From positions 1-64,000 of the forward strand of contig CAWDOY010000048.1 in the NCBI GenBank assembly GCA_963803975.1: a stretch of DNA of 64,000 bases. Direction: 5' to 3'. Below the pieces are notes generated by a model. The model had not been told where the DNA came from, made no database searches, and saw nothing but the letters and a program-made list of their open reading frames with translations. This DNA is from an uncultured delta proteobacterium. GTDB lineage: Bacteria > Desulfobacterota > WTBG01 > CAIYCZ01. Below are positions 9,582-60,485 of this stretch, piece by piece. The first letter of the stretch is position 1; each line of letters begins with the position of its first letter. Both the position numbers and the translations under genes were made by a program.

Positions 9582-9643
9582 ATTCAATGAGTGGTTTGAA
9601 AATCTATTGTAAAGTTCGCCGAGAAGAAAAAGAACGTATAATA

Positions 9644-10765
9644 ATGAATTTTAAAAATATATTTAAACGCGGCAACCATGAAACATCTGATGCTAAGGCT
9701 CAGCAGATCAGTATGTTTTCCCGGAATATGATGCTCATTCAGTGGCTGCTGATAGCTCTTGCGATTCTGTACATAGAGCTTCCCGGTTCATATGTGGAAA
9801 ACCGGCAGAGCGTAATAGTCACCCTTGTGGTGTATTGTCTTGCCGTGCTGTTCTTTGACTACTTTGGCTTGCACAGAATTCACCATAAAAACAAGATAGT
9901 CATACAAACCTGGGCGATGATTGCCTTCATAACCTATATTTTATGGTCTACGGGGAAAATTGAAAGCCCCATGCTGAGCCTCTATATCCTTGCCATTATA
10001 ACGACTGCTTCAACACTTGACAAAAAAGTCACACTTCTCGAAATGGGGCTTATCTCCGCCTGTGTGCTTTTTTTGACTTTTACTCCTTCGGTGCTTGCTA
10101 AAATGGACCTTACGCAGGCAATTCGCTTTTTGCTGATGCTGTTCCCGTTCTGGCTTATCGCATATTTCGCCAAGATGATGTCAGATGAAATCAGAAGTTC
10201 CCGGAATAAACTTGAACAGTTTGCCCTGACAGATGAGCTTTCCGGTCTCTATAATTACCGGGCAACCATGCAATTGGCAGAGAAAGAATTGCAGCGGGCA
10301 AAGCGGTATCGCCGCAGTTTTTCCATTGTGATGTGTGACATTGATAATTTTAAAGAGGTAAATGACAAGTACGGGCATAATGGCGGCAACACATTAATCA
10401 GACTGATTGCAAAGACCATGTTCAAAAGCTTGCGGACACTGGACATTGTCGGCCGGTTCGGCGGTGATGAATTCATACTGGTATTGCCTGAACAGGATGA
10501 GAATGGCGGGTATAAGGCAGGCAGACGCCTGCTCACGCTCATCGGTGACACCTACTATAACATCGCGAACAAGGAAATTAAAATTACGGTGAGCATGGGT
10601 GTTGCAACATATCCCAATCATGGCGAAGAACTTTCAGAATTAATAAAAAAGGCGGATGAGGCACTGTATGCAAGCAAGCAAAAGGGCAAGAATAAGGTAT
10701 TAATATGCGCAGATGAAACGATTAAACCCTCGGAGGAATTTATACCAGATTATGCGCGTGTTTAA
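9644..10765 (+). CDS. Membrane-bound diguanylate cyclase (GGDEF)
   Basis: Several TM segments, then TDELSGLYN, DIDNFKEVNDKYGH and RFGGDEF, with RxxD (RTLD) upstream of the motif. Confidence 0.92.
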   Translation: MNFKNIFKRGNHETSDAKAQQISMFSRNMMLIQWLLIALAILYIELPGSYVENRQSVIVTLVVYCLAVLFFDYFGLHRIHHKNKIVIQTWAMIAFITYILWSTGKIESPMLSLYILAIITTASTLDKKVTLLEMGLISACVLFLTFTPSVLAKMDLTQAIRFLLMLFPFWLIAYFAKMMSDEIRSSRNKLEQFALTDELSGLYNYRATMQLAEKELQRAKRYRRSFSIVMCDIDNFKEVNDKYGHNGGNTLIRLIAKTMFKSLRTLDIVGRFGGDEFILVLPEQDENGGYKAGRRLLTLIGDTYYNIANKEIKITVSMGVATYPNHGEELSELIKKADEALYASKQKGKNKVLICADETIKPSEEFIPDYARV

Positions 10766-10794
10766 CGGCATACTTTTTAGCAGCAGGAGGCAGT

Positions 10795-11199
10795 ATGGAA
10801 CAAATTAAAATAGTTGTCCGTTACGCAGACGGCAGGGTTGTCAAGGGATACAGCAGTAATTTTTTACCTAACCGGCCCAGCTTTCATCTCACGCCCTATA
10901 GCGCTGAATCCGGAAATGGAGCTATAGATGTCTCGTTGAAAGACCTCAAGGCGCTATTTTTTGTTAAAGATTTTGCAGGGGATTCATCCCGCAAGGATGA
11001 ACAAAAAATAGCTGAAGGTAAAAAGCCGGCAGGCAGGATGGTTGAAGTGATGTTTAATGATGGTGAGGTATTAGCGGGCACAACGACAGGATATGACCCA
11101 AACCGATCGGGATTTTTTCTTTTTCCAGTCAATCCCGAATCGAACAATATACGGGTATTTATACTCTCGAGCTTTGTGAAACAGGTACGCTTTATATAA
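10795..11199 (+). CDS. Conserved hypothetical protein with two internal Sm-like halves
   Basis: SD CAGGAGG; internally duplicated pattern VVRYADGRVVKG / VEVMFNDGEVLAG. Confidence 0.75.
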   Translation: MEQIKIVVRYADGRVVKGYSSNFLPNRPSFHLTPYSAESGNGAIDVSLKDLKALFFVKDFAGDSSRKDEQKIAEGKKPAGRMVEVMFNDGEVLAGTTTGYDPNRSGFFLFPVNPESNNIRVFILSSFVKQVRFI

Positions 11200-11963: not shown

Positions 11964-13530
11964 GGGGGTGTTGAAAAACCCCCTCTATAAGTATTGTCAG
12001 GCAGTACAAAGCAAAGCGCTATACAGTTTTTCTACCCAATCACCAAAAAACTGTTTAATAACAGCTCCTAACCTATTACGAATAATTAAATACCAGTCTC
12101 CATCATATGGTCGGGGGCTTAAGGCCTTGGCCAGCCGCTTCAAGTTGATTACCGCTGCTATCAGATATACTTGAATCGCAACATTAGCTAACCCACGACG
12201 AATGGCCCGCCGCAAGCCATGCTGCGTTTTCCCCTCACCATGTACCCCTTCAACATAAACCCGATGCCGGCTATAAACCCGTTGGGTATCTGTATCCCAG
12301 CCACGATTCTTTCTCCTGCGCGCTCGCAACAGTGCCTCATAACCATCCACAATTAGTATCACCCGTACCTTTGCCGTCTCAGGGATACATCGTTTCTGTA
12401 GTGGACAAGTGCTACAATCACTCTTCCGTGCGCGGTAGAACCACCCATTCTTCGTACGGTTTGCCCGCTCCAGACTTTTACCTCCAGGACACCGTACCCG
12501 TTGATGCTTGCCGTCATATTTGAACCGCCTGATCGGTATCCGCTTCTCCTTCACCCGCTCCCGCTCCGGCGGTATGATGCCATCTATCCCTCGTTTCTCT
12601 AACCCCTCATAATTCCGTCCATGGGCGTAACTCTTGTCTGCCGTTACCCGGCCCAGCTTCTTCCCGGTTGTCTGCTCAATGCGTTCTACCGTCTCAAGTA
12701 ACCGTTGTCCCTCATTCGCTTCTCCGGTCGTTACCTCAATATCTACGATTACCCCTTCTTTGTCATCGACTGCCGTGTGCTGTTTGTATGACGGCTCAAG
12801 ATGAAAATCCCTCCGTGAGGTCACCAGCGTTGCCTCGGGGTCGGTACTGCTTACCTTCTTCGGATGCTTTTCTCGTGTGCGGGGACGTCCAGGCCCCCGT
12901 GGCCGTGGATCTTCCGCCCGGTTGTCCTCGTCGGTATTGTTCTCTGCAACCACCTGCTCTGCGTGTCTCTCGGTTATGCTTTCCCATGACACGTCCGCTC
13001 GTATCAAAGTCGCATCGATATGCACCGTTTCTCCGCTCACCAACCCCTTTGCTATACAGCTCTGTACCGTCCTCTGAAATATCTTTTTAAACCGCTCTTC
13101 TCCCCAGCGCTGCCGTATCCGGCTCAGGCTCGAATGATCCGGCAACTTCTCTTCCAGACTGTATCCCGCAAACCATCGGAGCGCCAGATTTACCTGTGCC
13201 TCTCTCATTAACTTCCGATCATGCACTACTCCATGGAAAAACCCGGCCAGCATCAGCCGTACTGCTGCTTCCGGGTCTATCCCCGGTCGTCCATTACCTT
13301 CACAGTAACTCTCCCGCACTTCTTCTCGCAACCAGCTCAAATCAAGGATTCTATCTACCCGCCGCAGTATGTGATCTTCAGGAATGAACTGATCGATATC
13401 TCCTGCGATAAATAAGTGCCGCTGCTTTCGGTCCTGCTTGCCTATCATTGAGTGTCTCCATGATTATGTTTGATTTTGCGCTGCAGCATATCATATAATC
13501 ATTTCTCACGGAGACTTTTTCAACACCCCC
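11964..13530 (-). mobile_element. IS1182-family insertion sequence, intact
   Basis: Perfect 15-bp terminal inverted repeats GGGGGTGTTGAAAAA (11964-11978 / 13516-13530); 5-bp target duplication ACTGC at 11959-11963 and 13531-13535. Confidence 0.92.
11997..13448 (-). CDS. IS1182-family DDE transposase
   Basis: 483 aa; IPEDHILR, GRPGIDP, LPDHSSLSRIRQR, IDAT, ADKSY and VEGVHGEGK motifs plus a Cys cluster. Confidence 0.92.
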   Translation of the reverse strand: MIGKQDRKQRHLFIAGDIDQFIPEDHILRRVDRILDLSWLREEVRESYCEGNGRPGIDPEAAVRLMLAGFFHGVVHDRKLMREAQVNLALRWFAGYSLEEKLPDHSSLSRIRQRWGEERFKKIFQRTVQSCIAKGLVSGETVHIDATLIRADVSWESITERHAEQVVAENNTDEDNRAEDPRPRGPGRPRTREKHPKKVSSTDPEATLVTSRRDFHLEPSYKQHTAVDDKEGVIVDIEVTTGEANEGQRLLETVERIEQTTGKKLGRVTADKSYAHGRNYEGLEKRGIDGIIPPERERVKEKRIPIRRFKYDGKHQRVRCPGGKSLERANRTKNGWFYRARKSDCSTCPLQKRCIPETAKVRVILIVDGYEALLRARRRKNRGWDTDTQRVYSRHRVYVEGVHGEGKTQHGLRRAIRRGLANVAIQVYLIAAVINLKRLAKALSPRPYDGDWYLIIRNRLGAVIKQFFGDWVEKLYSALLCTA

Positions 13531-19714: not shown

Positions 19715-20254
19715 TCGCATAAAACCCCCGGCTCCTGCCGGGGGATGAAGCGGCTATCCAGACGAGATGGTATTTGCTATGATAGGGCATGCGATTCAGA
19801 AAAGGTGCCCATACCATCTATAAGACAGAGTACCATCTCGTCTGGATACCGAGATATCGGCGAAAAATCTTTGTAAAGGGTGTCAAGGAATATGCAGTCA
19901 AGACACTTTCGCACATCCCTGGACTCGATCCCGATATCGAGGTAATTAAACTCAATGTGCAGATAGACCATGTACACATGGTTATCGTGATACCGCCGAG
20001 AATTGCAGTTGCCGAGGTTGTACAGTACATCAAGTCACAGTCGGCAAAAAAACTAAAGGCGAAATTTCCTTTTCTTCACAAAACGTACGCGAGCAAAGAA
20101 GGCATCTGGTCACGAGGATACTGTGTATCGTGTATTGGGCTCAATGAAAAGGAAATTCTCGCCTATGTCTCCCATCAGGAAAAGGAAGACAAAGGGCAAC
20201 TGCAATTGACGTTGTGATCTAAGAAACCCCCGGCTCCTGCCGGGGGAGGGTCAT
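19715..20254 (+). mobile_element. IS200/IS605-family element, TnpA only (ends approximate)
   Basis: Identical 24-nt hairpins AAACCCCCGGCTCCTGCCGGGGGA at 19722-19745 and 20224-20247 flank tnpA. Confidence 0.85.
19789..20217 (+). CDS. tnpA: IS200/IS605-family Y1 (HUH) transposase
   Basis: YHLVWIPRYRR, DHVHM (HUH motif), WSRGY and YVSHQ catalytic Tyr. Confidence 0.93.
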   Translation: MRFRKGAHTIYKTEYHLVWIPRYRRKIFVKGVKEYAVKTLSHIPGLDPDIEVIKLNVQIDHVHMVIVIPPRIAVAEVVQYIKSQSAKKLKAKFPFLHKTYASKEGIWSRGYCVSCIGLNEKEILAYVSHQEKEDKGQLQLTL

Positions 20255-43034: not shown

Positions 43035-43821
43035 CTACTCTTTATCAGAAGCTTTTTTAGTGCGCTTCTTTACCGGGAGAAGCGATATCTTTTTTGCTCC
43101 TTCAGGCGCCTTGAATGCAAACGTATCCTCTGGCATCTGAGGAAGCGCTGTGAAGCTCTTGAGCACCGCAATGTACTGCGGTGACCCCGGGCGCTGCTTA
43201 TACGTTATGACAATTTTTCGCAGCTGCGGCACATCCCCGGCGTCAACCCATATCTGCCAGTCAATGTTTTTTTGTGTCGCTGCGATATGGTGGCATTTTA
43301 TACCATCTGCATAGTGAAGGCCCAGGTAGCGGCAGGTTTTTGCATTTTTTATCAGTACGGAATACAGGTCATCGGAGAGCAGGTCTGCAAGAGGCGTGGT
43401 CACGCCGTATTTATCAACCAGCATGTCCATGGTCTCGCCAATGGTGCCGGGAGCAGCGACCTGGCCGTAGACATTGTTAGTCGCGGTCGAGCAGGGTAAA
43501 GGTTTTGTCGTCTTTCCAGATGGTAGTGTTGGTAATATCGCCCGTTGACTCAATCCAGAATTGTTTAGGCTCGCTTACCTTCAGCTTTCGGATGTGCGAA
43601 TACTGAATCTTTTGCCCGGACTTGAGCACCTCGTCCATAGTGTCAATGATCTCCACGCTGGCATTGATAGCCTTCTTTTTTTGTTCATTCAGCGCCTGGA
43701 GGATTTTCTCCGCCTGCGGATCAATGGCCGGGCTAGCAGCCTTTGACTGCCCCCAGCAGGTGCCAATAAATAGAGGTACTATAAATACCAACAAAAATAC
43801 TGTTTGCACAATGCGTTTCAT
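43035..43821 (-). CDS. DUF2092 family exported protein, frameshift near 43480
   Basis: IDPQAEKIL, GQKIQYS, APGTI, PLADLL, CHHIAATQKNIDWQIWVD and PGSPQY. Confidence 0.8.
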
Positions 43822-43943
43822 ACGACAACTCCTTTTTATAAAGTTAAATGTGATTAATAAATCTATATTGTTCAAGACGGGCCTGGTGAAGCTCTGCTGT
43901 TGATAGCTGATTTCTCTCTGCCACGGGCGGGAAACGGTAGTGC

Positions 43944-46041
43944 TTAAAAATTCCAGAATGAGTCTATCTCTTCGTCGGTAAAATCCCAGACCGCATTGTG
44001 CGGCGGCACCGGTTCTTTGAAAAATTCCGGAAGGCGGTCGTCTTTATTGGTGAATCCGGCTGCCAGGTTGAATTCATGCTCGGTGAGAAGAACCTTCCGT
44101 CCCAGTGGCGCGCCATTCTTCGGCAGTTTTGTTCAGCCCATCCTTTGCATTAAGCATGTCAGCTAAAAGTGATGCCACTTTAGGATTATCTAATGCCGCG
44201 AATCCGACAAATACACAAAGACCGGTACTGTCCAGGTATGTAGTGCCGATCTGCAGCCTTCTTGACAGCTCCACCTGCCCTTCCTTCTTCAGGGGATCAA
44301 CAAAACCGCCAACTTTCAGGATATTTACCGGGATACAGTACCCTGCCGTGTGGTCACTGCCCATGGTTGTCGTTGCATAGGTGATGCCCATCCCTTTAAC
44401 GGCGCGCGGGTCATACGCTGAAAGCCCCTGATTTTTAACAACCGGTACTCTGGTAATACCATGGGCCCTGCCGACTGCTCCGGCACCGGCGCCGATAGTG
44501 CGGCCCAGGGGTGTGCCGGCTCCGATTTCTTTCAGCAGCCGCAATGCGCCAGGTCCGTCACCAAAGGCAATGATGCCTGCTTCCATGACGACCCCCATGG
44601 CAACCACTGTTTCAATCGAGTCAATACCGATATCGTCCATAATATGGTCTGCTTCGGCGATGATATCCAGATCATCAATACAGCAGTCGGCCCCGAAACC
44701 CCAGATGGTTTCAAATTCAAAACCAGAGGTCACATAATTGCCATCCTTATCATTGTATACCTGGGAGCATTGAATAATACATCCCGTATGGCAGAAATGA
44801 TGGGGCCTGCCTTTGCGCGCAATAATAACGTCCCGCAGGGTTTCTCCGCTTATTTTATTAGCTCCGGCAAATTGGCCTTCCCGGAAATTCCTGGTCGGCA
44901 GCCCTCCCGATTCATTCATGATATTCACCAGCACATTGGTGCCGTACAGCTTCAGCGACTCACCGCTCACGGGATGGGCCAGCACCGCCTTTGCAAACGC
45001 ACGCGCAGAAATTTTAAATTTCTCCTGATCAACTATCGGTACGCCGGGGCCATCAGCAGGGTCAATGGTGATGTACTTAATTTTTTTGGAGCCCATAACC
45101 GCGCCCAATCCGCCGCGGCCATGGCTGCGAATATTGCCATCAGGATCCTTCACCGAGATATTGGCCGCTGCCAGGCACATTTCGCCTGCCGGGCCAATGG
45201 ACAGAATACCAGTTTTATCCCCATGTTTTTTAATAAGGGTTTTCATTACTTCATAATTCCATTTACCCACTAACTCTTTCTCTTCTCGAATCGTAATCCC
45301 GTTCTTGTCAACATGGAGACTGTAAAACGTGTCTTTCTCAGGCAGGCCTTCAATAATGAGGGCCTTAATGCCCAATCGGGCGAGGCACTGGGCAGCAGTG
45401 CCGCCGGCGTTACTTTCTTTGATGGTGCCGGTCAGCGGGCTTTTGGCTCCGGCAGAAAGCCGCCCCGAGTTTGGGCACATGGTCCCGGCGAGCAAGCCGG
45501 GAGCAAAGATAAGCTTATTGTCCTTTCCCAGCGGATCACAGGTTGGCTTTACTTCCTGTGCCACAAAGGTTGAGGTCAGACCTCTGCCGCCAAGGCCTTT
45601 CCATTTCTCGGGCACATCCTCAACTTTTGCCGTGAGTGTTGACATGTCTACGCGATAAATTTTGTCTGCATGAACTTTTTCCGGAATAATCATTTGTTGC
45701 TTGTAGATGGCCTGGCCTTTATCTGTCACGGGCGGGAAATACTGATTCTCCATGGCAAGACACTTTTTAGGACAGATTTCAACACAGAGATTGCAGGCGC
45801 AGCATTTGAGACGATCTATCTGCCATTCCTTGATAGCTTTGGTGACGACAATAGAATGGGTCGGGCACCGCTTGCCGCACAGGCCGCAGAAAATACAATC
45901 GTTAATAGTAATTTCAACTCTGCCCCTGGTAATGGGGGTATACACCCGCTTGCGCTGCGGATACATAAGCGTCGCAGGCCCGGTGAACAGGTTCCGCAAC
46001 ACGGTTTTTGACATGGTAAAAAATTTCATAATCCAGTCCAT
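43944..46041 (-). CDS. EchF-like 2x[4Fe-4S] domain in one frame with an aldehyde:ferredoxin oxidoreductase (AOR family); frameshift near 44105
   Basis: N-terminal PATLMYP..RG, CIFCGLCGKRCP and CCACNLCVEICP; then AOR motifs LGGRG, KSPLTGTIKESNAGG, GRGGLGAVMGSK, CHTGCIIQC, EFET, DDIGIDSIE and DSTGLCVF. The alternative frame ends FNLAAGFTNKDDRLPEFF...FWNF at 43944. Confidence 0.85.
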
Positions 46042-46046
46042 AGTTT

Positions 46047-46215
46047 ATCTGGAACTCAGGAACTCAGTAGAAATGAAAATAAAATTATGCTATCTGATCT
46101 CAAGAAAATCAAAAAGAATTGTCATTACAAAAATTCAGGTTCACTGATTATTAACTGAATCCTGAAATTCCAGTATTCGAAATCTTTTTATTTTTATGAG
46201 TTCTGAGTTCCAGAT
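46047..46215. repeat. Inverted-repeat miniature element between echE and echF-aor
   Basis: ATCTGGAACTCAG...CTGAGTTCCAGAT 13-bp terminal inverted repeat around an AT-rich core. Confidence 0.7.
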
Positions 46216-46246: not shown

Positions 46247-47326
46247 CTACCGCTCCGTGCAGCTGATACATGGGTCAAGGGTTAGAATGATATTCGGAAC
46301 ATCCGCGACCTGCGAACCCTTCAGCACTGCGATCATCGCCGGGATATTGCTGAAGGTGGGGGTTCGCACCCGGAACCGCTGCAGGAATTTTGTGCCATTG
46401 GCTTTCACATAATGGATCACTTCACCCCGTGGCTGCTCGATGCGGGAAAAGTACTCGCCATTCGGCGTGCCCTTGACCTTGACATCAAACGGCCCATCGG
46501 GAATTTTTTCTGCTGCCTGGCGGATCAAATCTATGGATTGAAAGATTTCTCGGATTCTCACCAGGCACCGCGCATAGCAGTCTCCGGAGTTTTCAACCAT
46601 TGGCTCCAGCTCAAGGTTTTTGTACGCGGAATAGCCGATTTTTCGCATGTCGCTGGCATACCCGCTGGCCCGCAGCATGGGTCCGACACACCCGAGGCGA
46701 TAGGCATCTTCTTTGGAGATATGCCCTACGCCGACCAGCCGGTGCTTGACCGAATAGTCATTGATGAATACGTCAGTGAGTTCATGCAGTTCCTTCTCCA
46801 TGGCGAGTAATCTGGCTGTAATTTCATTTAATTTACCCGCTTCAATGTCACGCTTTACTCCGCCAACCTTGTTCATGCCGAAGATCACCCGACCACCGGT
46901 TGTTTCTTCAATGATGTCGAGAACCTTCTCCCGTATTCGGAGCGATTGCATGAACAGGCTCTCAAAACCGAAGGCATCAGCTGCCACGCCGAGCCAGAAG
47001 ATATGGCTGTGCAGCCGCCCCAGCTCCGCCCAGATGACCCGCAGATACTGGCAGCGCTCCGGCACCTCAATAGCCATAATCTCTTCCACTGCCTGGCAAT
47101 AGCCCATGCTGTGCATGAAACTGCACAGACCGCAGATCCGGTCTGCAACATAGGCATAGTCCATAAAATCCCTTTGTTCCACCAGCTTTTCCAGGCCCCG
47201 GTGGACAAAGCTTATGGAAGGGATGGCATCGACAATCAGCTCATCCTCGGTGATAAGCTCAAAATGAATCGGCTCGGGAAGCACCGGGTGCTGCGGTCCG
47301 AAGGGAATTACATTGGTACGAGCCAT
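46247..47326 (-). CDS. echE: Ech [NiFe]-hydrogenase large subunit
   Basis: PFGPQHP, HRGLEK, L1 motif RICGLC and L2 motif DPCISCTER at the very C-terminus; 359 aa. Confidence 0.92.
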   Translation of the reverse strand: MARTNVIPFGPQHPVLPEPIHFELITEDELIVDAIPSISFVHRGLEKLVEQRDFMDYAYVADRICGLCSFMHSMGYCQAVEEIMAIEVPERCQYLRVIWAELGRLHSHIFWLGVAADAFGFESLFMQSLRIREKVLDIIEETTGGRVIFGMNKVGGVKRDIEAGKLNEITARLLAMEKELHELTDVFINDYSVKHRLVGVGHISKEDAYRLGCVGPMLRASGYASDMRKIGYSAYKNLELEPMVENSGDCYARCLVRIREIFQSIDLIRQAAEKIPDGPFDVKVKGTPNGEYFSRIEQPRGEVIHYVKANGTKFLQRFRVRTPTFSNIPAMIAVLKGSQVADVPNIILTLDPCISCTER

Positions 47327-47793
47327 TGAATGCTACTCCTTTTTTTCCTGGGCTGACAATCAGCGGCAGCGGCCGACGGCTGCTGTGCCGGTTCATCCTG
47401 CTTCAGGGCAGCGGCTTTGGGCTGCTTAGGCGGCTCAGGCTTCGGCAGATTTTCGATGCTGAAGGGCGTTTTAATCGCGGTGCGGTAAAACGCGCCTTTG
47501 TAGTCAACGCTTATATTCTTAATGTTCAGGCCAAACAGGTCATTGATTTCATTCTCATATAAAAAAGCATTCGGGTAGATAACACTGATGCTTTGAATCT
47601 CATCCTGCTGCTGCACGGTGATGCGCAGGTTTTTAAAAAGATAGTCTTTATCGAACGAGTAGTTCAGTTCATAGGCGTCGGCAAGCGTGGTGCAGCCGAT
47701 CTGTACCATGCGATAGCCCTGGGCAAACAGGTCAGAGACAGCTCCCAGCAGAGCGTCTTTTTCGATAGGGATTATTTCCTGCGGTTCACTCAT
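47308..47793 (-). CDS. echD: Ech hydrogenase subunit D (NuoC-like); C-terminus possibly frameshifted
   Basis: GYRMVQI, ELNYSFDK and SISVIYPNAFLYENEINDLFG; position in operon. Confidence 0.85.
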   Translation of the reverse strand: MSEPQEIIPIEKDALLGAVSDLFAQGYRMVQIGCTTLADAYELNYSFDKDYLFKNLRITVQQQDEIQSISVIYPNAFLYENEINDLFGLNIKNISVDYKGAFYRTAIKTPFSIENLPKPEPPKQPKAAALKQDEPAQQPSAAAADCQPRKKRSSIQWLVPM

Positions 47794-47815
47794 AGGTTAA
47801 TACCGATACTATTTG

Positions 47816-48268
47816 TTATGCTTTTATAGATTGTTGTTGGGTGTTTTTCTGCTGCGCGTATTTTTCTTCAAGAATCCCGCACGCTTTTAATACGCCGTCG
47901 ATAATCGCTTCAGGCCGCGCGGAGCAGCCGGGGACATACACATCCACAGGCACTACCTTGTCAGCGCCGCCCAGCACGTTGTAGCAGTCCTGGAACACGC
48001 AGCCGGAACACGCGCAGATTCCCACTGCCACCACGACCCGGGGATTGGGCATCTGCTCATAGAGCGTCTTTAAAACATGCTTGCTTTTCTCATTGACCGA
48101 GCCGGTCACCAGCAGTATGTCGGAATGTTTCGGGTTGCCGGTGTTGATAATGCCGAACCGCTCCAGATCATACAGGGGGGTCAGGCAGGCAATAACCTCT
48201 ATATCGCAGCCATTACAGCTCGTTGCATTATAATGAAACACCCATGGTGAACGTTTAAACCAGGCCAT
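47816..48268 (-). CDS. echC: Ech hydrogenase small subunit (NuoB-like)
   Basis: RSPW, SCNGCDIE, GNPKHSD, GICACSG and YVPGCSARPE. Confidence 0.92.
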   Translation of the reverse strand: MAWFKRSPWVFHYNATSCNGCDIEVIACLTPLYDLERFGIINTGNPKHSDILLVTGSVNEKSKHVLKTLYEQMPNPRVVVAVGICACSGCVFQDCYNVLGGADKVVPVDVYVPGCSARPEAIIDGVLKACGILEEKYAQQKNTQQQSIKA

Positions 48269-48318
48269 ATTATAAATCCTAATTTGTAAACCCTAAAACC
48301 CGAACTTCAGCCTAAACC

Positions 48319-49200
48319 CTATTTAATCAAATGCAGCACAATAATATTTGACACCCCGGCCACGGCAGTAAACAGCCATGAGCTCAGGAATGTAAGCTGC
48401 CACTTGAACCGGGAATAATTGTTATCAATAAAAATCTCAAACAGATACGCCGCTATAGTCAGCACAATCCCCAGCCAGGGGTTGAAGGCAAAGAACAGAT
48501 ATACGATACCCAGGAGCAGCACATTTTCATACCAGTGGGATATTTCTATAAGGGCCAGGGCAGGGCCGGAAAATTCCGTGGTGAGCCCGCGCACGATTTC
48601 CTGATGGGCGTGATGCGATATGGAAAGGTCAAACGGTGATTTTCTGAACTTGATGGTGAGAATATACAAAAAGCCGGCAAACACGCCCGGCAGAGCCAGG
48701 ATAAGCGGTTTCTGGTACATCGCGATATCAGCGACCTTGAAGCTTCCGGTCACCATATACATGCCGACAGCCACAAGAATGACCATGGGCTCATAGGCCA
48801 CCATCTGGATTATCTCACGCTCAGCACCCAGGTGGCTGTAGGGTGAGCTGACCGAGTACCCGGCCAGCACAAAGAACGTCCCTGCCGTGGCCAGGCCGAA
48901 GATCATCAGCAGGATATCAGCACCGCAAAAAAACAGAGCGCCGGAAAACACGGTAAAGACAAAAAACAGAATTATATTGAAGTTCTGAAATTTATTAACA
49001 ACGATGCGCTCCTTTTGAAACAGTTTAAACACATCATAAAAAGGCTGAAGTATTGGCGGGCCAAACCTGCCCTGCAGCCGGGCGGTTAATTTGCGGTCGA
49101 TCCCGGCCAGCACGCCGCCAATGAACGGTGCGATAAGGACATACGCCAGCATCCGCTCAGCAAGGCCCAGGGATTGAAACAACTCAAACAGTGTCTTCAT
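48319..49200 (-). CDS. echB: Ech hydrogenase membrane subunit (NuoH-like)
   Basis: GIDRKLTARLQGRFGPPILQPFYD and KFRKSPFDLS.SHHAHQE. Confidence 0.92.
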   Translation of the reverse strand: MKTLFELFQSLGLAERMLAYVLIAPFIGGVLAGIDRKLTARLQGRFGPPILQPFYDVFKLFQKERIVVNKFQNFNIILFFVFTVFSGALFFCGADILLMIFGLATAGTFFVLAGYSVSSPYSHLGAEREIIQMVAYEPMVILVAVGMYMVTGSFKVADIAMYQKPLILALPGVFAGFLYILTIKFRKSPFDLSISHHAHQEIVRGLTTEFSGPALALIEISHWYENVLLLGIVYLFFAFNPWLGIVLTIAAYLFEIFIDNNYSRFKWQLTFLSSWLFTAVAGVSNIIVLHLIK

Positions 49201-51096
49201 AAGGCTGCAACCCCGAACATGATGAAAATCAAGGTCAGAGAAACTAACACACCGACATTACATAATATATCTTCGCCGAAAGTACTTCGTCAGGTAGTAG
49301 TTTTTAAGGTCAGCTGTCTGTTTATGATCCATGGGGCCTTCAAAGCTGACATTGTCAACATTTGCTCCCCCGAGATACGTTCCCACCCGCCTATAATTCT
49401 TATTAACGTATGCATAGTACATGAGCCCCAGGGGAAGAATGATTAAAATACCAATCATGATGACGTAAATAACAAGTATATTGAAGGTATCAACCACAGG
49501 AGATTTCCCGAACACGTCCTTGAGATAGGGATCTATGATGCGGGAGGAGATAAACGGAAACCCAAGGCACACGACAACGGTGGCAATTGCTAAAATAGCC
49601 AGGGTAAACTGTTCCCAGCGACTCACCGGATGCTCCACAACCTGGGTCTCGCCATATTTAATGGACATGATTTTACCCATCCATTTGGTCCAGAAAAAGA
49701 CCGTGGCTGCGCTGCCATAGGCTAACAGTATTGCCATTCCCGGATTGCTATCGATAAATGCTTTGAGTGTTACGAACTTGCTGATGATCATGCCGAAGGG
49801 GGCAAGAAACATTCCGGCCATGCCGATCATCATGACTGCGGTGAGCTTCGGCAGGCGCATAATCAAATAGTCCATATCCTCTATGTCACGGCTGCCCAGC
49901 CTGTATTCGATAATCCCCACGCAGAGAAACAAAAGCGACTTGGCCACCGCGTGGAAGATAATCAGCAGCAGCGCTGACCATACTGCCGCATCGGTATTGA
50001 CTCCTGCGCAGGCGACAATCAGGCCGAGGTTGGAGATGGTTGAGTAGGCAAGCACCTTTTTAGCGTTGCTCTGGGAAATGGCAATCAAGGCCGTAACCAG
50101 GAAGGTAACCCCGCCGACGAGCATGAGCATTTTTGCCGCCACCGTGTTCTCCAGCACCGGCGCCACCCGCAGGATGATATAGACTCCTGCTTTCACCATG
50201 GTGCTTGAATGCAGCAGCGCTGACACCGGCGTGGGGGCTACCATGGCGCCGGTCAGCCATGAGCAGAACGGGAACTGGGCTGATTTCACCAGGCCGGCAA
50301 AGGCAATGCACACGGCAGGAAGCAGGACAAGGCTCTTATCAGCTTGCAGCAGCTTATCCAGCTCCATGATTCGGGCAGAGCTGTACAGATACACAATACC
50401 CACCGCAAACGCCAGCCCGCCCAGCAGGTTCATATTCAGTGCTCTGAATGAGCTTTCAATGGACTGCTTGTCATTCCGGTAGCCGATGAGAAGCGCCGAG
50501 CAGATGGTGGTTATCTCCCAGAAGAAAAAGACCCACATGAGGTTATTGGAAAAGACGATGCCGAACATGGCGGACAGGAACAGGTAGATGAGGAACGCGA
50601 AATACCTGCGCCGGTCTTTTACTTCCTTATGATGCTCGTGATATTCGGGGAGATAGCCGATCGCATACAGGCAGATGGCGCTGCCGATAATGCCGACAAT
50701 CAGCGCCATGATGATGGAGAACTTATCCACGAACAGGCTGTGCTCAATGTGCATCGAGCTGCCGGAGGTAAACTCAAAGGTCAGCATAATCACTGACTGC
50801 ACGACTACGAGCAGCACGGGGAGATATCTTTTTGCCCGGATGGAAATATAAATAATAAAGCCTGCAATGAAAACTTCTATCGCAAGCATGAAAATATTGA
50901 TCAGATGGCTCTCAAGCTGGAAATATGCAGGCCCTTTATCAAGGTAGGTGATAAGCAGATAGATGGGTACTACGCACAGGACAATAATGGCAATAACGCC
51001 GATAATTCTTCTAAGCGTGACCAAAGCAGAAGGCAGCACCGCTGCTAATATCGCGATGCACAAGGGGAACACTATCAGAAAAATCAACGCATTCAC
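49197..51096 (-). CDS. echA: Ech hydrogenase antiporter-like subunit (NuoL-like); frameshift near 49275
   Basis: FFWEITT, KSAQFPF..WL.GAM.APTPVSALLHSSTMVKAG and LAYSTISNLG. The alternative frame ends in a TM helix whose TGA overlaps the echB ATG. Confidence 0.9.
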
Positions 51097-51271
51097 TGCA
51101 ACGTCCTCATATACGGTAAATGATTACCTGTTGTTAGACGATTTGACACAGTTGTCTGCAGCTGCTCCCGGTTAAATTACTATAGCACAAAATATCTTTA
51201 TCATCTGTTTAAAGAACATAATTAAAGAGAAAATATGCATGCACCATCTGAATTTAATCTGCACCCGCCTA

Positions 51272-53557
51272 TTAACTTGTCTGAATCATTTCTTTAAGTA
51301 TTTTGACTGTCTGTTTGGCTGCATCTTCCGGCTTTAAGCCTTTGTTGGAGATACCGCACACCACCTTGACAATATCGTGGTCACATTTTTTATCAGCCCA
51401 GACCTGTGCTTTGGGCGCTGCGATATACACTGAAAACGCATTCTGGCCGGTCCCCGGTCGCTCGCCGATGATGTGCAGCACAATCCGTTTTTTAGCGGGG
51501 TCGGATTTTTCGAACAGGATGTTGCCAACCTCGATAACCGGCCCGCACGCGGCCGCTGGTCACGAGAATATTTTTTTCATCAACCGTTAAGCCGGCTTCC
51601 TGCAGGTCTTTCTTCACCGCAGTGAGGTATGTTACGACCTGGCCTTCGCTCATGATTGCATTGGCATTTAACCCGTCAGAGATGACAATCTGCACATCCG
51701 GGTCTTTGCCTGCCCACGAATCCCGCAGCTTTTCAAGGGTTGCAACCGACTGCTCGTTCAGCTTTTCACCGGTGGGGGGCTGCACAATATAGTTTTCCCG
51801 GTCCTTTGCCTGAGTGGCAACCTGCACTGCATTGGGAACCGTCTTGATAAACTCAGGGGTAAATTCCGCCCATATTGATTTCTTGCCGTCGTCGTACAGC
51901 TCCCGCACTTTTTTATCCAGTTCCGGGTTCAGATCCCAGATGTTTTTGCCATACCCGGCAGCAAGCGCTACCCGCTGGCCGGTCTTCAGCCAGGTGCCAT
52001 AGATATCATCAAACTTCTGTTTGCCTTCGGCATATATTTCCTGTTCAGAGCGTTTATCGCCTTTGGCTGCGCAGTACTGATAATAAACCCAGATGGGGTC
52101 TCCGAAGTGCTTTGTTGGTTTGCCGTTCTTATCAATGATCTGGATTCGTTTATAGAATTCCCACATGGCATCATTGATTTTATAGCCGAATTTTTCCCGT
52201 ATGCGCACATGATCCTGAAACGCAGTGGTCAGATAGCCCAGCATGGGGTCATTCCTGGTGGGAAGGGCCATGATATAGGCGGGATTTGCCGGCATAATCT
52301 GATCCTGGCACCACTCCAGATCATCGAGGCTCACCGACATGTGCAGGGTTGAGCAGATATCAAGGCCTATGGCAAGCCCGTGCAGTTTACCCATGGCTAT
52401 ATCTTCCAGGCAGCAGCGCACCAGCTGCTCTCTGGTTCTGAAAACTTCCGGCCCGATGAAACCGGCAACATCGTTGACGTGTGTCCAGGCGCCCTTGGGC
52501 TGGACTTTCCCCAGGCCGTTTTTAATCGCCCGGGAAAATCCGTACTTGCGGGATTCAAGCACGACCATGTCCACCCCTTCGGCTGTTCCATTGGTGAAGT
52601 CAGCACCCTGGCCGGTCTCAAAATACATCCCGTAGCGCTGCCCTTTGCGTGATTTTGCATGGTCAATCATCTTGTCCACGCTGATGTCAAACACCTTGTT
52701 GGCCGCATCAGTTCCTGCCAGGCTCTGGAACATAATGGCAACCAGCTCCGGGTTTTTGTCGGCAACGGCCCGCTGCACGTCAACATGGGCCAGCACACAC
52801 CAGGGAATAATATCTTTAAGGCCAAAGGTATCCACCACATCCTTGAGGGTTTTTTCCACCCGGGCAGTACTTTCCACGGTTCCATCTACCGGGTTTGTGC
52901 CGATGACTATATCGCCCACCGCATAGGAGAAGCCGTCAAATGTCTGCCAGCGAATTTCCTCGGGATCATCAGTGGCAGAATTTGGCTGGATGCGGGCGCT
53001 CATGTACCCTTTTGCGCCGATTTTGCTGCCGGGCAGCGGATTAAAAATCTTTTGCCCAACTGCAATCAGCTCCTGATTGCTCATGAGCTTGACCACACAG
53101 GCTATTACATCACTATCAAGGCCCGGCATGATTGCCTTGATCTCTTTTTCCGGTTTGGTCAGGATAAATGTTTTTAGCTTTCCAATAGTCCAGCTTTTTA
53201 TCTTCTCGTACTGTGCTGCGTCTGTTGTTTTCCAGATTCCTTTCTGCAGGGTATCCTCCAGAAGGGGGCGCTCATGCAGGTCTTTTATTTTGGTGTTTGC
53301 AAGCAGCTTCCGGGCATTCTCCCTGCTCACTTCATCATCAGCTCCCACGCCGATTGTTTTATCTCCCTCCTTGAAGGCATTTGCCGCACCGACTATTTGC
53401 TTATACAGTGTCGGGTCAAATGAACCCTTGACCTGCTGAATATATTGAAAGATATCTTCTCCGGGTTTTACATCCTTAATGGTTATGGCGCTGCAGTAGG
53501 TACTCAAGCAAAAGATACCAATGGCGATCAGTGCTGCTATATAATGTGTCGTTTCAT
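51272..53557 (-). CDS. eutBC: Fused ethanolamine ammonia-lyase EutB-EutC with apparent N-terminal signal peptide; frameshifts near 53540 and 51535
   Basis: EutB motifs ANAFKEGD, ARIQPN, GTNPV, FQSLAGT, YFETGQG, VNDVAGFIGPE, LED..MGKLHGL and DPMLGY; EutC motifs PDVQIVISDGL, GRVRAG and IIGERPG. SD GGAGGG then ATG at 53557. Confidence 0.88.
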
Positions 53558-53652
53558 ACTCAATACCCTCCTGAACATAGCAATTATTTAATTAAATAGT
53601 ATAGAAAACTTCCGTTACAATTTTATTGCATGCCAGTTTGCATTTCTCTGTT

Positions 53653-54048
53653 TTAGTGCAGCAAAGTGGGCGAGATATACGTACCACCCTTTAAAACTTC
53701 CTCCACTGCTGCAAGGAGGTCGGTGGCTGCCATTCGCTTGAGCACGAAACCTTTCGCCCCTGTCGCAAGGCATTCATTCACCACTGTCTGTTCGTCATGA
53801 ACGCTCAGGATGATGGACTTGAGTTCCGGATTCAATCTCTGCAGCAGCCTGACAACGTTTTCCCCCGAAGATATTGGAAATGACAGATCTGCAATGATGA
53901 GATCAAACTGGGTACCGGTTACGGCTTCAGTAAGAGAGTGCTCGTCTGCTACCATGAGCATCGTGCACATCGTTTCCTTAAAAATAAGACGAACGACACC
54001 CACAAATGTTGGATGGGTATCGGCAAGCAGGATTCGTTCTGACAGCAT
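53653..54048 (-). CDS. Stand-alone response regulator receiver protein
   Basis: ILLADTH, DLIIADLS, LSVHDE and GAKGFVLK; no output domain. Confidence 0.85.
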   Translation of the reverse strand: MLSERILLADTHPTFVGVVRLIFKETMCTMLMVADEHSLTEAVTGTQFDLIIADLSFPISSGENVVRLLQRLNPELKSIILSVHDEQTVVNECLATGAKGFVLKRMAATDLLAAVEEVLKGGTYISPTLLH

Positions 54049-54193: not shown

Positions 54194-54835
54194 TCAGGGC
54201 TCTGCAATGCCCTGCTTCACAGCGTACCGGACCAGTTCTGCCGTTGTTTTGATTCCGAGGTCTTCCATCATCCGGTACTTATGGTATTCTACGGTTTTTA
54301 TTGATATGTTTAAAATGGAAGCAATTTCTTTTACAGAATGACCCTCTGCAAGCAACTGCAGCACCTCACGCTGCCGCGAAGAAAGGCAGAGGGACGCATC
54401 GGTCCGCGATTTGGGTCCAGATTTGCAGGAATGCAGGAGTTTTCCGGCAATCAGGGGTGTTATATAAATTCTTCCCTTGAGCGCCTCCTGGATGGCTGCG
54501 ATAAGTTCATCGGGGGCGGAGTGCTTTAGAACATAGCCCGAGCCGCCTGCATTGAGGGCGTTAACCGCATAGGCCACATCGGGATGCATCGTGAGAAATA
54601 CCACCTTGATCCCCGGATGCCTTTTTTTTATCTGCCGTACGGCTTCTATGCCATTGAGAAGCGGCATGGATATATCGGCAACGATAACATCGGGCTGGAG
54701 TTTTTGGGCAGCAGCTACAAGTTCACGACCGTCCTCAACGACACCGGAGATGTCAAAGTCCGCGCAGAGCAATCTCTTCAGCCCTTCAACGAAGATTTTA
54801 TGGTCGTCAGCTATCAGCAGCCGCGGCTTGTTCAT
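54194..54835 (-). CDS. NarL/LuxR-family DNA-binding response regulator
   Basis: ADDH, DISMP and LSSRQREVLQLLAEGHSVKEIA..LNISIKTVEYHK. Confidence 0.95.
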   Translation of the reverse strand: MNKPRLLIADDHKIFVEGLKRLLCADFDISGVVEDGRELVAAAQKLQPDVIVADISMPLLNGIEAVRQIKKRHPGIKVVFLTMHPDVAYAVNALNAGGSGYVLKHSAPDELIAAIQEALKGRIYITPLIAGKLLHSCKSGPKSRTDASLCLSSRQREVLQLLAEGHSVKEIASILNISIKTVEYHKYRMMEDLGIKTTAELVRYAVKQGIAEP

Positions 54836-56520
54836 GTGCTTCCCCTAACGGAATGAAGATTTGAATTTCAGTGCCTTTCCCCGGATTTGATTCAACGGCA
54901 ATTGTGCCGTTAACGTGTCGCACCCGTTCTCTCATACTGGACAGACCAATTCCTGCGTTCTGTTTTGCCTTTTTTAAGTCGAATCCGATCCCCTTGTCCT
55001 GTATCAAAAGGCGGATGCCGCCGGAGATGCCATGGAGGTTGATGGAAGCGGCTGTCGCACTTGCGTGTTTAGCAATATTCTGAAGACCTTCCTGGATTAT
55101 CCGGTAAAGGCAAAGCGCCAGGTGCTGGGGAATTAAACCCGGGAGATCAAGTGGTGTGAAGGACAAATCAATGCCGGTTTTTTTGGTAAAGGTGCTGCAT
55201 TCCGCCTGCACAGCCTGAACCAGTCCCAGGTCATCGAGGATGGATGGATGAAGCCGGCGTGACAAGCCATGGACATCGTCGGCCAGATCAGTCAGATTGA
55301 TCCTCAGGGCCTTGAGGGCCTGAACAGTCTGAGGGTCCACAGGGCTCAATTGTTTTTCAATCAGCGCCGCTTCCAGTGCCAGTGCTGCAAGCCTTTGTGT
55401 CAGATCGTCATGGAGCTCCCGGGAAAGCCGCCTGAGCTCTTCTTCCTGGGCGTAGATAATTCTTCCGGTGAGTTCGCTGAGATCCTGTTCATTGCGCCGC
55501 AGGGCATCCTCTACCTTCTTGCGCTCGCTGATGTCCAGGGACACGCCCATCATGCTGAGTGGGTTCCCCGGCGTGGTTCGCTGCAGCTGGCCGCGGGAGG
55601 CGATCCAGCGGACAGTCCCGTCGGCCCTCAGGACACGGTACTCGATGGTAAAATCTGTTTCTGTCTGCATGGCCTGCTGAATGGTCTGGTGAATCCGTTC
55701 GCTATCCTCGGGATGGATACACTGCAGGAAGCTCTCGTACTGCAATTCATCGTGCGGGAGAAAGCCGAACAGCTCACGTGTTTTGCCGGTGGCCCAGACC
55801 TGTCCGGTATCCAGTGACATACTCCACATGCCTGCGTTTGCTGATGCCGCAGCAAGGCTCAGTCGCGCCTCACTTTCTCTCAATTCCAGTTCAGACATTT
55901 TCCGGCTGAGCGCATTAGCAGAAAATCTGGGAGATAAGGCTTAATTGCGTTACCATCGCCTGCGGCCATTCCCGCTCTTCCCGCATCATGGCGAAGGTTA
56001 TACAGCCTATGACTGCGCCTCCTACCACAAGGGGAATTATTGCGTCGGCCTTTGTTCCAAAACGTCTTATCATCTCGGCATCATGGCTCGCCTCCGGGGG
56101 GAGCTCTTCAAGCCTTGAAAAGAGAACCGTTTTGCCATGCTGGAAGACCTGGTTGAAGAGCCAGGGGAAATCCGTTGTTACTTCCAGTTGTATTTGAACC
56201 GGGGAGCCATCAGATGCCTGCGCTGTCCATTTTCCGTTTAACGAAAAGCTGGTATTTGCAGGTTTTATAATAGTCTGAACATCCTCATGCTCGTAAATGT
56301 GAGTGAACACATATCTGCCGGGCTCATGCTTAAGCTGCTGCCATATGGTAGACCGGTCGATGCCGAAGAATTCACAGATTCTGCGCTGGGCAGCCTCGAT
56401 TTCTTGATCAATCCGTTCAGCGGGGAGGTTGATAAAGTGAGTGGAAATTTCGGCCAGCAGCGTTTCGAAACGCAAGCGGTCTTCGAGTTCTGCGAGAAGT
56501 TTGGTTTCTAATTCAGACAT
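54807..56520 (-). CDS. Cytoplasmic GAF-PAS sensor histidine kinase (HisKA_3), frameshift near 55920
   Basis: GAF-like N-terminal part (ORF 55915-56520); PAS (IHPED, EYRV..DG..RWI); RELHDDL, QEGLQNIAKH, DKGIGFD and GIGLSSMRER. Confidence 0.85.
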
Positions 56521-59056: not shown

Positions 59057-60113
59057 TTAGCCTCCGCCATCTCCCTCCATCCATGCATCAAGCAGTTTGT
59101 GGGCAACAGCCAGAACCACCGGACCGACGAAAAGTCCGATCAGCCCGAAAGACATCAGCCCGCCGACTACACCGATAAAAATAAGCAGCAGCGGCAAATC
59201 GGCGCCTCTTTTGATGAGAATCGGCCTCAGGACGTTGTCCAGTGTCCCGACAATGAGGGTGTAAACCAGAAGGAATATCCCCATGCCCGTGCTGCCGCTC
59301 CAGAAAAGCCACAGCGTGGCCAGTCCAAGCACCGGCACCACGCCGATTTGGGAAATGGAAAGTATTAACATCACCGCCGTAAGGATGGCGGCAAACGGCA
59401 CGCCGGCAATCAGCAGGCCCAGACCTCCCAACACCGACTGGGCCAGGGCCGTAACAACAATGCCCAACGACACGCCGCGCACGGCCTGACCGGCAAGCCG
59501 GACCGCATTTTCACCGTGCAGCCCTGCCAGACGACGCCCAAAACATAAAACACGATCGGCAGCTGCCTCGCCGTTGGCATACAGGATAGCGGCTATCAGC
59601 ACCGTGAGTAAAAATTCCACCAGCAGTTTACCGAACCCGCCCACCTGGGCCACAAACCACTTGATTAAATCGCCGGCATAGGGACCGATCGTGGCGGCAA
59701 TCTCCTGGATTCCTTCCCGGGCAGTCTTCTCCCAGACAGCCACCAACTTGTCCGCCGATAAACGGCAGCTTGGCCACCCATGCCGGATGAGGGGGAATTT
59801 TAAACGTTTCGAACGCTTTGACCCAAACAATGATTTCGTCGGTATTGGAAATGATCGTGCCGATGGCCATTGAGAGCGGTACGACCAGTACGCACAGCAG
59901 AACGATCGTCATGACCGCAACCGCCAATGAGCGTTTGTGCCACAGCCGATTCTGAAGCGTGATCATCAGGGGCCACGTTGCCACCACAATGGTTGTCGCC
60001 CAGACCGTAGCCCCCAGAAACGGCCGCAGAATCCATAAGCATGACCCGATAAGGGCCACGATAAAAATTACGCTCAGCAAACTTCGCGTCAAATCATTAT
60101 GCGCTTCGGTCAT
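59057..60113 (-). CDS. AI-2E family transporter (YdiK-like), frameshift near 59740
   Basis: WILRPFLGATVWATTIVVATWP, GVSLGIVVTALAQ and DNVLRPILIKRGADLP. Confidence 0.85.
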
Positions 60114-60485
60114 GTTGCCATACTCCGGGCCGCTTGATAGGAATTCATTTTTATTGATAGGAACTCGCTTTCGGATGAAGGAACTATAGGCCGCTGACTT
60201 ATTGTGTGTCAATAAAAATTCCGCAGCAAGATATGAAGAGGGGTTAACCGGACAAATACCAACATCTCGTGGTGGGCATTAACCGCTGAAACTGCCGACT
60301 ATGTATCATTTCTGCGAGAAGTCATTAAACATTAACTCGATTGCAGACTATACCATGCATGCTTAATAAAAGTATGAATGGGTTGCACAGATCTGGTCAT
60401 GACGCTTCACAGCAGAAGTATTCTGTTTTTGTGAAGAACCGGTAACCTCCCGGCCAGGAACGCACTGCCGTGTCAGCCAGTGCGC

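Follow-up and report, generated by a model that had tools for sequence, protein, structure and literature searches.

The 64,000-nucleotide (nt) stretch analyzed here (contig CAWDOY010000048.1, positions 1 to 64,000, from an uncultured delta proteobacterium; below, "the window") carries on its minus strand a fused eutB-eutC gene (eutBC) whose product is predicted to be exported, probably by a cleavable Sec-type signal peptide. Ethanolamine ammonia-lyase, formed by EutB and EutC, is known from textbooks as a cytoplasmic or microcompartment-bound radical enzyme dependent on adenosylcobalamin (AdoCbl). The reading that we favor, at a probability of about 0.72, is that a Sec-exported fused EutBC would act in the periplasm, that the acetaldehyde formed would be oxidized by an aldehyde:ferredoxin oxidoreductase (AOR) linked to an Ech-type hydrogenase, and that the frameshifts found in eutBC are assembly errors. 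Within this reading, we infer export, cleavage, cofactor loading outside the cytoplasm, and AOR-Ech coupling.

As assembled, eutBC is spread over three frames. The Shine-Dalgarno sequence and the ATG at 53557 (MKRH), proposed as the start in a preliminary description of this DNA, were both found, and the frame from this ATG reads MKRHII before a TAG stop. The adjacent frame is open from 53591, reading ...YIAALIAIGIFCLSTYCSAITIKDVKPGEDIF / ...YIAALIAIGIFCLSTYCSAITIKDVKPGEDIFQYIQQV in translation, and runs on as a 671-amino acid (aa) open reading frame (ORF; 53507-51492). One missing base parts MKRHII from ...IAALIAIGIFCLSTYCSA followed by ITIKDVKPGED; restoring it joins the start to the ITIKD frame, as had been suggested. 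The end of EutC is encoded in the third frame by a 69-aa ORF (51481-51272). The same description had EutB running in frame into EutC over 51272..53557: the fusion stands, being contained in the 671-aa ORF, but the continuity down to 51272 does not, because of a frameshift at 51532-51534. With the first base restored, the N terminus reads MKRH..IAALIAIGIFCLSTY-C-S-A. Cleavage is predicted after the alanine encoded by GCC 53489-53487, with the mature protein predicted to start as ITIKDV at 53486.

Whether fused EutBC homologues share this extension was asked of the 120 best homologues (70 to 96% identical, mostly 751 to 776 aa; source labels Thermodesulfobacteriota, Geobacter, Desulfuromonadales, and Geomonas sp. 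RF6); each of them has an EutB domain, and an EutC domain is recognized in almost every one. In 112 of the 120, the invariant mature start (I/V)x(I/V)KDVKPGEDVF is preceded by 18 or more residues of pre-sequence. The start was called within the hydrophobic region in four, and the remaining four were missed by the motif (one with a signal, one with a short pre-sequence, two without the N terminus). Position −1 is Ala in all 112 pre-sequences, and position −3 is Ser in 74, Cys in 32, Ala in 4, and Gly in 2. The pre-sequence is 24 aa long in 89, the net charge of the n-region is +2 in 94 and at least +1 in 110, the uncharged stretch spans 14 to 23 residues, and the median of the highest 10-residue Kyte-Doolittle average is 2.92. 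Pairwise identity was 0.56 in the pre-sequence but 0.84 over the 25 residues that open the mature protein, as would be expected if the signal peptide is conserved in form.

The charged n-region, hydrophobic h-region, and small −3 and −1 residues are those of a Sec-type signal, and the 112 pre-sequences of the window's clade do not fit a twin-arginine (Tat) signal, which has the motif S/T-R-R-x-F-L-K, a longer n-region, and an h-region of moderate hydrophobicity. The Sec-type signal peptide proposed in the preliminary description is thus borne out at the sequence level. Given its presence in 112 of 120 homologues, the signal-like N terminus is, as a sequence feature, beyond chance. Two other interpretations of the N terminus were rejected. 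A lipoprotein signal does not agree with Ile or Val after the predicted site or with the replacement of the −3 Cys by Ser in 74 of 112 pre-sequences, that is, there is no lipobox; an encapsulation peptide does not agree with a genome without shell genes.

Deeper relatives carry a different type of export signal at the same place. Among 24 genome loci, twin-arginine signals of ~38 to 45 residues, their cores only mildly hydrophobic (Kyte-Doolittle values of 1.4 to 2.45), were read at the N terminus of the fused genes of Mesorhizobium prunaredense (L016), a Geminicoccaceae metagenome-assembled genome (MAG; L017), an alphaproteobacterial MAG (L018), a deltaproteobacterial MAG (L014), and a Smithella MAG (L020), while an RK variant (M-D-R-K-D-F-L-K) was read in the Bacteroidota member Mangrovimonas futianensis (L029). 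The profile TIGR01409 scored above its cut-off in L017 and P0207 (17.3 versus 16.7) and reached 14.8 in P0249. An exhaustive library search returned 1455 proteins with E ≤0.001; among the best 150 of these 1455, the N-terminal motif of the clade was present in 38 representatives, which fell, by hand-made rules, into 16 with RR and an uncharged stretch, 2 with RK-x-F-L, 4 Sec-like, 12 with other or truncated pre-sequences, and 4 with no pre-sequence.

In a 66-row tree, built by a quick search and rooted by choice, in which several branches are long, all 45 signal-bearing rows fell in one clade of 49 (SH-aLRT 100), where the window's EutBC groups with the intact homologue P0002. Fused and unfused forms without a pre-sequence fell outside this clade. 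Its deepest branches are Tat-type, and one Tat subclade is nested in a mainly Sec-type crown group, so the export route would have switched at least two times. The Tat signals of the deeper relatives are, at the level of sequence, an independent pointer to export.

The fused protein is, judged by its domains and key residues, predicted to be still an AdoCbl-dependent ethanolamine ammonia-lyase. EutB (Pfam PF06751) matched residues 35 to 466 of the window ORF with 494.9 bits (cut-off 25), and NCBIfam NF011649 (EutB) matched P0002 with 637 bits (cut-off 554). EutC (PF05985) matched the window in two pieces, with 68.1 and 39.2 bits (cut-off 25.8). In P0002, which is 94% identical to the window's EutBC, EutB ends near residue 489 and EutC begins near residue 555; the protein aligns to Escherichia coli EutB (3abo_A, E 3.3e-65), Listeria EutB (2qez_A), and E. 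coli EutC (3any_B, E 4.3e-13). We take R160, Q162, N193, E287, and D362 of E. coli EutB to be substrate-binding or catalytic residues, roles that reportedly come from Shibata 2010 and Mori 2014. In an alignment of 40 exported and cytoplasmic sequences, the P0002 residues R189, E314, and D400, which correspond to R160, E287, and D362, do not vary, and Q191 and N222, which correspond to Q162 and N193, show conservation of at least 90%. Of the substrate-binding motifs noticed earlier, SARIQPN, GTNPV, YFETGQG, and GLDIC can all be read in the window translation.

A second fused eutBC paralogue, ~75% identical, lies outside the window on the minus strand of contig C1 (~178325-180610). It has its own Sec-type signal, MKRFIAITAMIALGVFAFSTYSSA followed by IAIKDVKPGEDVF, and a TorF-like porin gene upstream. 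Behind it is a block encoding an unknown membrane protein, an ABC ATPase, a BtuF-like binding protein, a FecCD permease, MoxR, a DUF58 protein, an unknown 530-aa protein, and a VWA protein. The block follows eutBC in 13 of 13 crown Sec-type loci (including the query locus L023 and this second copy), being complete in 10 and cut short by contig ends in 3. It is absent from all five informative Tat loci, all four outlying Sec-like loci, and the window's own copy. Neighbors of Tat-type genes are a zinc alcohol dehydrogenase (L016 and L018), Pta-AckA and AOR (L014), and glycogen genes (L020). The membrane protein (~260 to 290 aa, without a Pfam family) always comes right after crown Sec-type eutBC (L023:12393-13175 and 12 further loci, 64 to 79% identical); the ESM Atlas gave for it only leads under 0.9, to MOP/oligosaccharide-flippase families. 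The presence of the block beside Sec-type genes and its absence beside Tat-type genes suggest, by linkage, that it may serve dedicated periplasmic cofactor handling.

The assembly (4.25 Mb in 57 contigs, 98% complete) contains no bacterial microcompartment (BMC) shell gene (PF00936) and no EutH gene (PF04346), in agreement with the earlier remark that shell and transporter genes are absent. The sole EutA match in this genome spans 44 positions. In five relatives carrying eutBC, BMC genes were absent from all five and a full EutA was present in one. Export fits as an explanation for the missing shell and transporter genes. Two CobA-type adenosyltransferases are encoded (C1:202795-203298 and C3:200794-201309), and no PduO/EutT-type adenosyltransferase was found in the genome; the idea that the organism is unable to make AdoCbl was dropped because of the two CobA-type genes. 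Of two cobalamin riboswitches in the genome, one (C1:187907-188096) is 7 kb from the second eutBC copy. An Rfam search found zero RNA families in the window, hence no B12 riboswitch before its eutBC.

Downstream of eutBC, five genes (46247..51096) are, by sequence, those of an Ech-type group-4 [NiFe] hydrogenase; EchE keeps both CxxC nickel-binding motifs (RICGLCSFMH, residues 62 to 71, and DPCISCTER, residues 351 to 359). They are followed by an AOR gene whose first ~105 residues form an EchF/NuoI-type domain and whose C-terminal ~40 residues are in another frame, reflecting a further indel. The fusion recurs in 2 of 120 AOR homologue clusters (P0272, 697 aa; P0273, 692 aa, 60 members) and is, on this sequence evidence, real but narrow. 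The EchF-like domain makes docking of AOR on the adjacent hydrogenase probable. The fused gene occupies the place of echF after echABCDE, an arrangement that suggests a built-in hydrogenase subunit, making the predicted complex an "aldehyde hydrogenlyase." Between echE and the EchF-AOR gene, which are 205 nt apart, an inverted repeat (46047-46084 / 46186-46215; 13 nt perfect, 29 nt at 79%) flanks 101 nt of AT-rich sequence. L021, the genome record closest to this one, was left out of the context comparison because in it (9583-10858) the AOR 3′ end is fused directly to the last third of eutBC (residues 493 to 759), probably by a co-assembly artifact or a deletion.

Reads of the source sample were not found; the frames were therefore checked against contigs of close relatives, drawn from three metagenome runs of DNA and one of RNA and compared with window positions 51200-53700. 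At frameshift 1, every spanning contig had one extra base (X1, 4.37 + 4.64 of 9.01 depth; X6, 11.6 of 11.6), and two of the spanning contigs otherwise differed from the window by 2 letters over ~200 nt. At frameshift 2, every spanning contig had one base fewer (X1, 7.48 of 7.48; X4, 9.3 of 9.3; X6, 7.88 + 14.3 of 22.1). The TAG after MKRHII, on which the preliminary description had let its proposal hinge, was thus not seen as a real stop in any of the spanning near-identical metagenome contigs. Contigs of the RNA library X16 were 88 to 95% like eutBC; they come from relatives and are no proof of transcription.

If both frameshifts were real, the window copy would be a strain-specific pseudogene in decay. 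Two frameshifts lie within 2.3 kb, neither of them in a homopolymer run, and the second paralogue could make this copy dispensable. The indels are, however, absent from the relatives' contigs, and the essential rpoB gene of the same assembly is also split, being in two frames with an internal TAA (G000:C16:26260-30325), while rpoC is intact. Several unrelated genes of the window are split too (Table 1), and the second eutBC copy has at least four frame changes, more than the first. Aside from both indels, the window's eutBC is 91 to 95% identical to the intact P0002, with zero in-frame stops. Both frameshifts are therefore most likely assembly indels rather than signs of gene decay, and we regard a pseudogene as unlikely. 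In an assembly so rich in indels, pseudogene calls need reads.

Several observations weigh against the export reading as a whole. Public runs searched for the window's own sequence gave a best share of sampled words of 0.36, which a pseudogene could equally claim in its favor. The signal classes depend on hand-made rules, and 4 of the 49 rows of the signal clade (P0124, P0128, P0126, and P0136) have no recognizable signal. Only 2 of 19 Tat-looking proteins reached the TIGR01409 cut-off, 16 being without any match, and none of the proteins examined with Pfam TAT_signal came up to its cut-off. EutC has diverged: P0002 scored 97.9 bits with the NCBIfam equivalog NF003971, whose cut-off of 230 is passed by the cytoplasmic fused form P0181 (253.8 bits). 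Co-transcription with the ech/AOR genes is made less certain by a gap of 175 nt after eutBC and by promoter and terminator scans around eutBC that gave nothing decisive. Last, cells make AdoCbl in the cytoplasm, and a protein exported unfolded by Sec could not bring it along; no AdoCbl exporter is known, and the periplasm is without ATP for a reactivase.

The hydrophobic N terminus may also be read in ways other than a cleaved Sec signal. It could stay uncleaved as a signal anchor, so that the enzyme is tethered to the inner membrane from outside and its catalytic part projects into the periplasm. Hydrophobicity of the h-region is very high (the median of 2.92 given above), its uncharged stretch of up to 21 to 23 residues is near a membrane span, and tethering beside the Ech-AOR complex is plausible; but Ala at −1 and a small residue at −3 in 112 of 112 pre-sequences are hard to explain without selection by signal peptidase I, and the invariant mature sequence starts exactly behind the site. 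An anchor is thus improbable. We consider it somewhat less probable still that Tat is in use, with the K-R pair as a degenerate twin arginine and EutBC exported folded with AdoCbl. This would solve the cofactor problem, sister lineages have clear Tat signals, and 85 of the 112 pre-sequences have KR with hydrophobic residues behind it, resembling RRxFL. RR, however, occurs in only 3, and 23 have none of RR, KR, or RK in the first 12 residues (for example, MKQL, MQRI, and MKHF). The pre-sequences are 24 aa long versus ~38 to 45 in Tat types, their hydrophobicity is 2.3 to 3.4 versus 1.4 to 2.45, and TIGR01409 gave no match on three Sec-type controls. The least probable alternative, in our estimate, is a cytoplasmic enzyme whose N-terminal segment is an inside-facing membrane tether or a start-codon artifact. 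Every ethanolamine ammonia-lyase characterized so far is known as a cytoplasmic enzyme that depends on AdoCbl produced within the cell, and in the long frame as assembled, the common start codon encountered first, TTG 53507, lies within the h-region. Against this stand the strong Shine-Dalgarno sequence before ATG 53557, positive charges before the h-region that favor an N-in/C-out orientation, the absence of shell genes, and a pre-sequence form that is conserved across phyla and elsewhere swapped for Tat signals, whose sole known role is export.

On the favored reading of a cleaved Sec signal, the unfolded EutBC chain would pass through SecYEG and be cut after ...C-S-A, and the enzyme would fold and bind AdoCbl in the periplasm. 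Fusion of the subunits would ensure their one-to-one delivery on export. Periplasmic EutBC would split ethanolamine into ammonia and acetaldehyde, both of which would diffuse inward across the inner membrane. At the cytoplasmic face, AOR would oxidize acetaldehyde to acetate, and EchF-AOR on Ech would yield H2 and an ion gradient. The periplasm would take over the role of the Eut microcompartment as the site of toxic aldehyde formation. A more specific version, which we offer tentatively and with the odds against it, is that the Sec-type apo-enzyme is loaded with AdoCbl in the periplasm, and perhaps resupplied with it there, by the conserved block (membrane protein, BtuD/BtuF/BtuC-like transporter, MoxR, and VWA protein) and forms with EchF-AOR/Ech a membrane-spanning, compartment-free "ethanolamine hydrogenlyase."

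The coordinates of eutBC and of the other features are collected in Table 1. Upstream of eutBC are genes for response regulators, a histidine kinase, and a GAF piece. The GAF piece and the kinase both start with MSELE and are 16 nt apart; either they belong to a single sensor kinase or they could be paralogous modules, two in number. Elsewhere in the window are an insertion sequence with a DDE transposase (DUF772 / DDE_Tnp_1) at 11997-13448 and an IS200-like Y1 transposase at 19789-20217.

Table 1. Features of the window, with positions counted from its first letter.
Feature	Positions	Strand	Basis
Fused eutB-eutC gene	53557-51272	−	Start, domains, and stop read from sequence
Shine-Dalgarno AGGAGG	53567..53572	−	9 nt before ATG 53557
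Predicted Sec-type signal peptide coding region, 24 residues, MKRHI..IAALIAIGIFCLSTYCSA	53487..53557	−	Translation and homologue statistics
Frameshift 1, one base fewer in window than in all spanning relatives' contigs	53540..53541	−	Contig comparison
EutB (large subunit) domain	52110..53405	−	Pfam PF06751, E 2.6e-148; 3abo_A and 2qez_A alignments via P0002
Linker of ~70 residues, EutB to EutC, without family match	51897..52109	−	Pfam; P0002 alignments
EutC (small subunit), first part, same frame as EutB	51537..51896	−	Pfam PF05985, profile 36-152, E 9.6e-19
Frameshift 2, inside EutC, one base more in window than in all spanning relatives' contigs	51532..51534	−	Contig comparison
EutC, last part, other frame as assembled	51272..51531	−	Pfam PF05985, profile 165-226, E 6.4e-10
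Stop codon of eutBC	51274-51272	−	Translation
EchA/NuoL-like	49258-51096	−	Pfam
EchB/NuoH-like	48319-49200	−	Pfam
EchC/NuoB-like	47816-48268	−	Pfam
EchD/NuoC-like	47308-47793	−	Pfam
EchE/NuoD-like, large subunit	46247-47326	−	Pfam
AOR with N-terminal EchF/NuoI-like 2x[4Fe-4S] domain	43944..46041	−	Pfam AFOR_N/AFOR_C/Fer4
Receiver-only response regulator	53653-54048	−	Pfam; upstream of eutBC
NarL/LuxR-type response regulator	54194-54835	−	Pfam; upstream of eutBC
PAS-HisKA_3-HATPase histidine kinase	54807-55898	−	Pfam; upstream of eutBC
GAF piece	55915-56520	−	Pfam; upstream of eutBC
Split AI-2E transporter gene	59057-60212		Frames
Split DUF2092 gene	43035-43875		Frames
Split DUF5122 propeller protein gene	7950-9162		Frames
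Split FAD_binding_4 protein gene	4516-6440		Frames
Split amidohydrolase gene	1608-2012		Frames

Compared with EutB/EutC of E. coli, Salmonella, and Listeria (3ABO and 2QEZ), the window protein belongs to the same EutB TIM-barrel and EutC families and retains the aligned key residues. In contrast to these enzymes, it is one chain rather than two and has an N-terminal export signal, its EutC is divergent and without the N-terminal region (profile positions 1 to 35), and its genome is without shell, EutA, and EutH genes. The only corrinoid enzymes well known to work outside the cytoplasm are the Tat-exported reductive dehalogenases (for example, PceA). Tat-type relatives of EutBC would share with them the logic of folding with the cofactor before export, but the dehalogenases have an unrelated fold and a corrinoid that is not adenosylated, and the window's clade is Sec-type rather than Tat-type. 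The use of either route within one family of periplasmic cofactor enzymes has a parallel in nitrous oxide reductase NosZ, clade I of which uses Tat and clade II Sec; by analogy, the EutBC family, too, would use Tat or Sec by lineage. The copper centers of NosZ, however, are assembled in the periplasm by known machinery, and none is known for AdoCbl. The predicted AOR-Ech complex resembles formate hydrogenlyase (FdhF and Hyc), in which a soluble oxidoreductase is wired via an EchF/HycF-type Fe-S module to a membrane-bound, H2-evolving group-4 [NiFe] hydrogenase; here, AOR is fused to the module, and the substrate would be acetaldehyde rather than formate.

Among the closest described systems is that of Pelobacter (Syntrophotalea) carbinolicus, a bacterium able to grow on ethanolamine although its eutBC genes are all fused and eutA is missing (Aklujkar 2012, PMC3543383). 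Its eutBC1 and eutBC2 are described there as lying near periplasmic binding proteins, a corrinoid-type ABC transporter, VWA proteins, and AOR (PMC3543383), an arrangement that, going by this description, is shared by the second copy of the window genome and 12 related loci. In the same paper, ethanolamine uptake is assumed, all three uses of "signal peptide" concern proteins other than EutBC, and Table S2 lists EutBC only as "ethanolamine ammonia-lyase" (PMC3543383). A full-text literature search, with subscription journals outside its coverage and sources available in part, returned no paper placing ethanolamine ammonia-lyase outside the cytoplasm.

To these relatives, the window adds a Sec-type member, a split of loci into Sec types with the putative cofactor block and Tat types without it, and an EchF-AOR fusion, and it shows breaks in eutBC that most likely arose during assembly. 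Anaerobic sediment bacteria (Geobacter relatives) widely carry members of the family, which is found in cultured rhizobia and flavobacteria as well; with such carriers in culture, the question of export is testable at the bench. The AOR-Ech linkage suggests that ethanolamine could be converted to acetate, ammonia, and H2 with conservation of energy. If EutBC is exported, radical B12 chemistry would take place in the periplasm, which would offer an alternative to a protein shell against acetaldehyde toxicity, and a concrete question would follow, namely, how AdoCbl arrives and is renewed in a compartment without ATP. If the more specific version, with AdoCbl loading by the conserved block, is true, no AdoCbl radical enzyme before EutBC would have been known to work outside the cytoplasm, and EutBC would give a first indication that B12 is delivered to the periplasm or recycled there.

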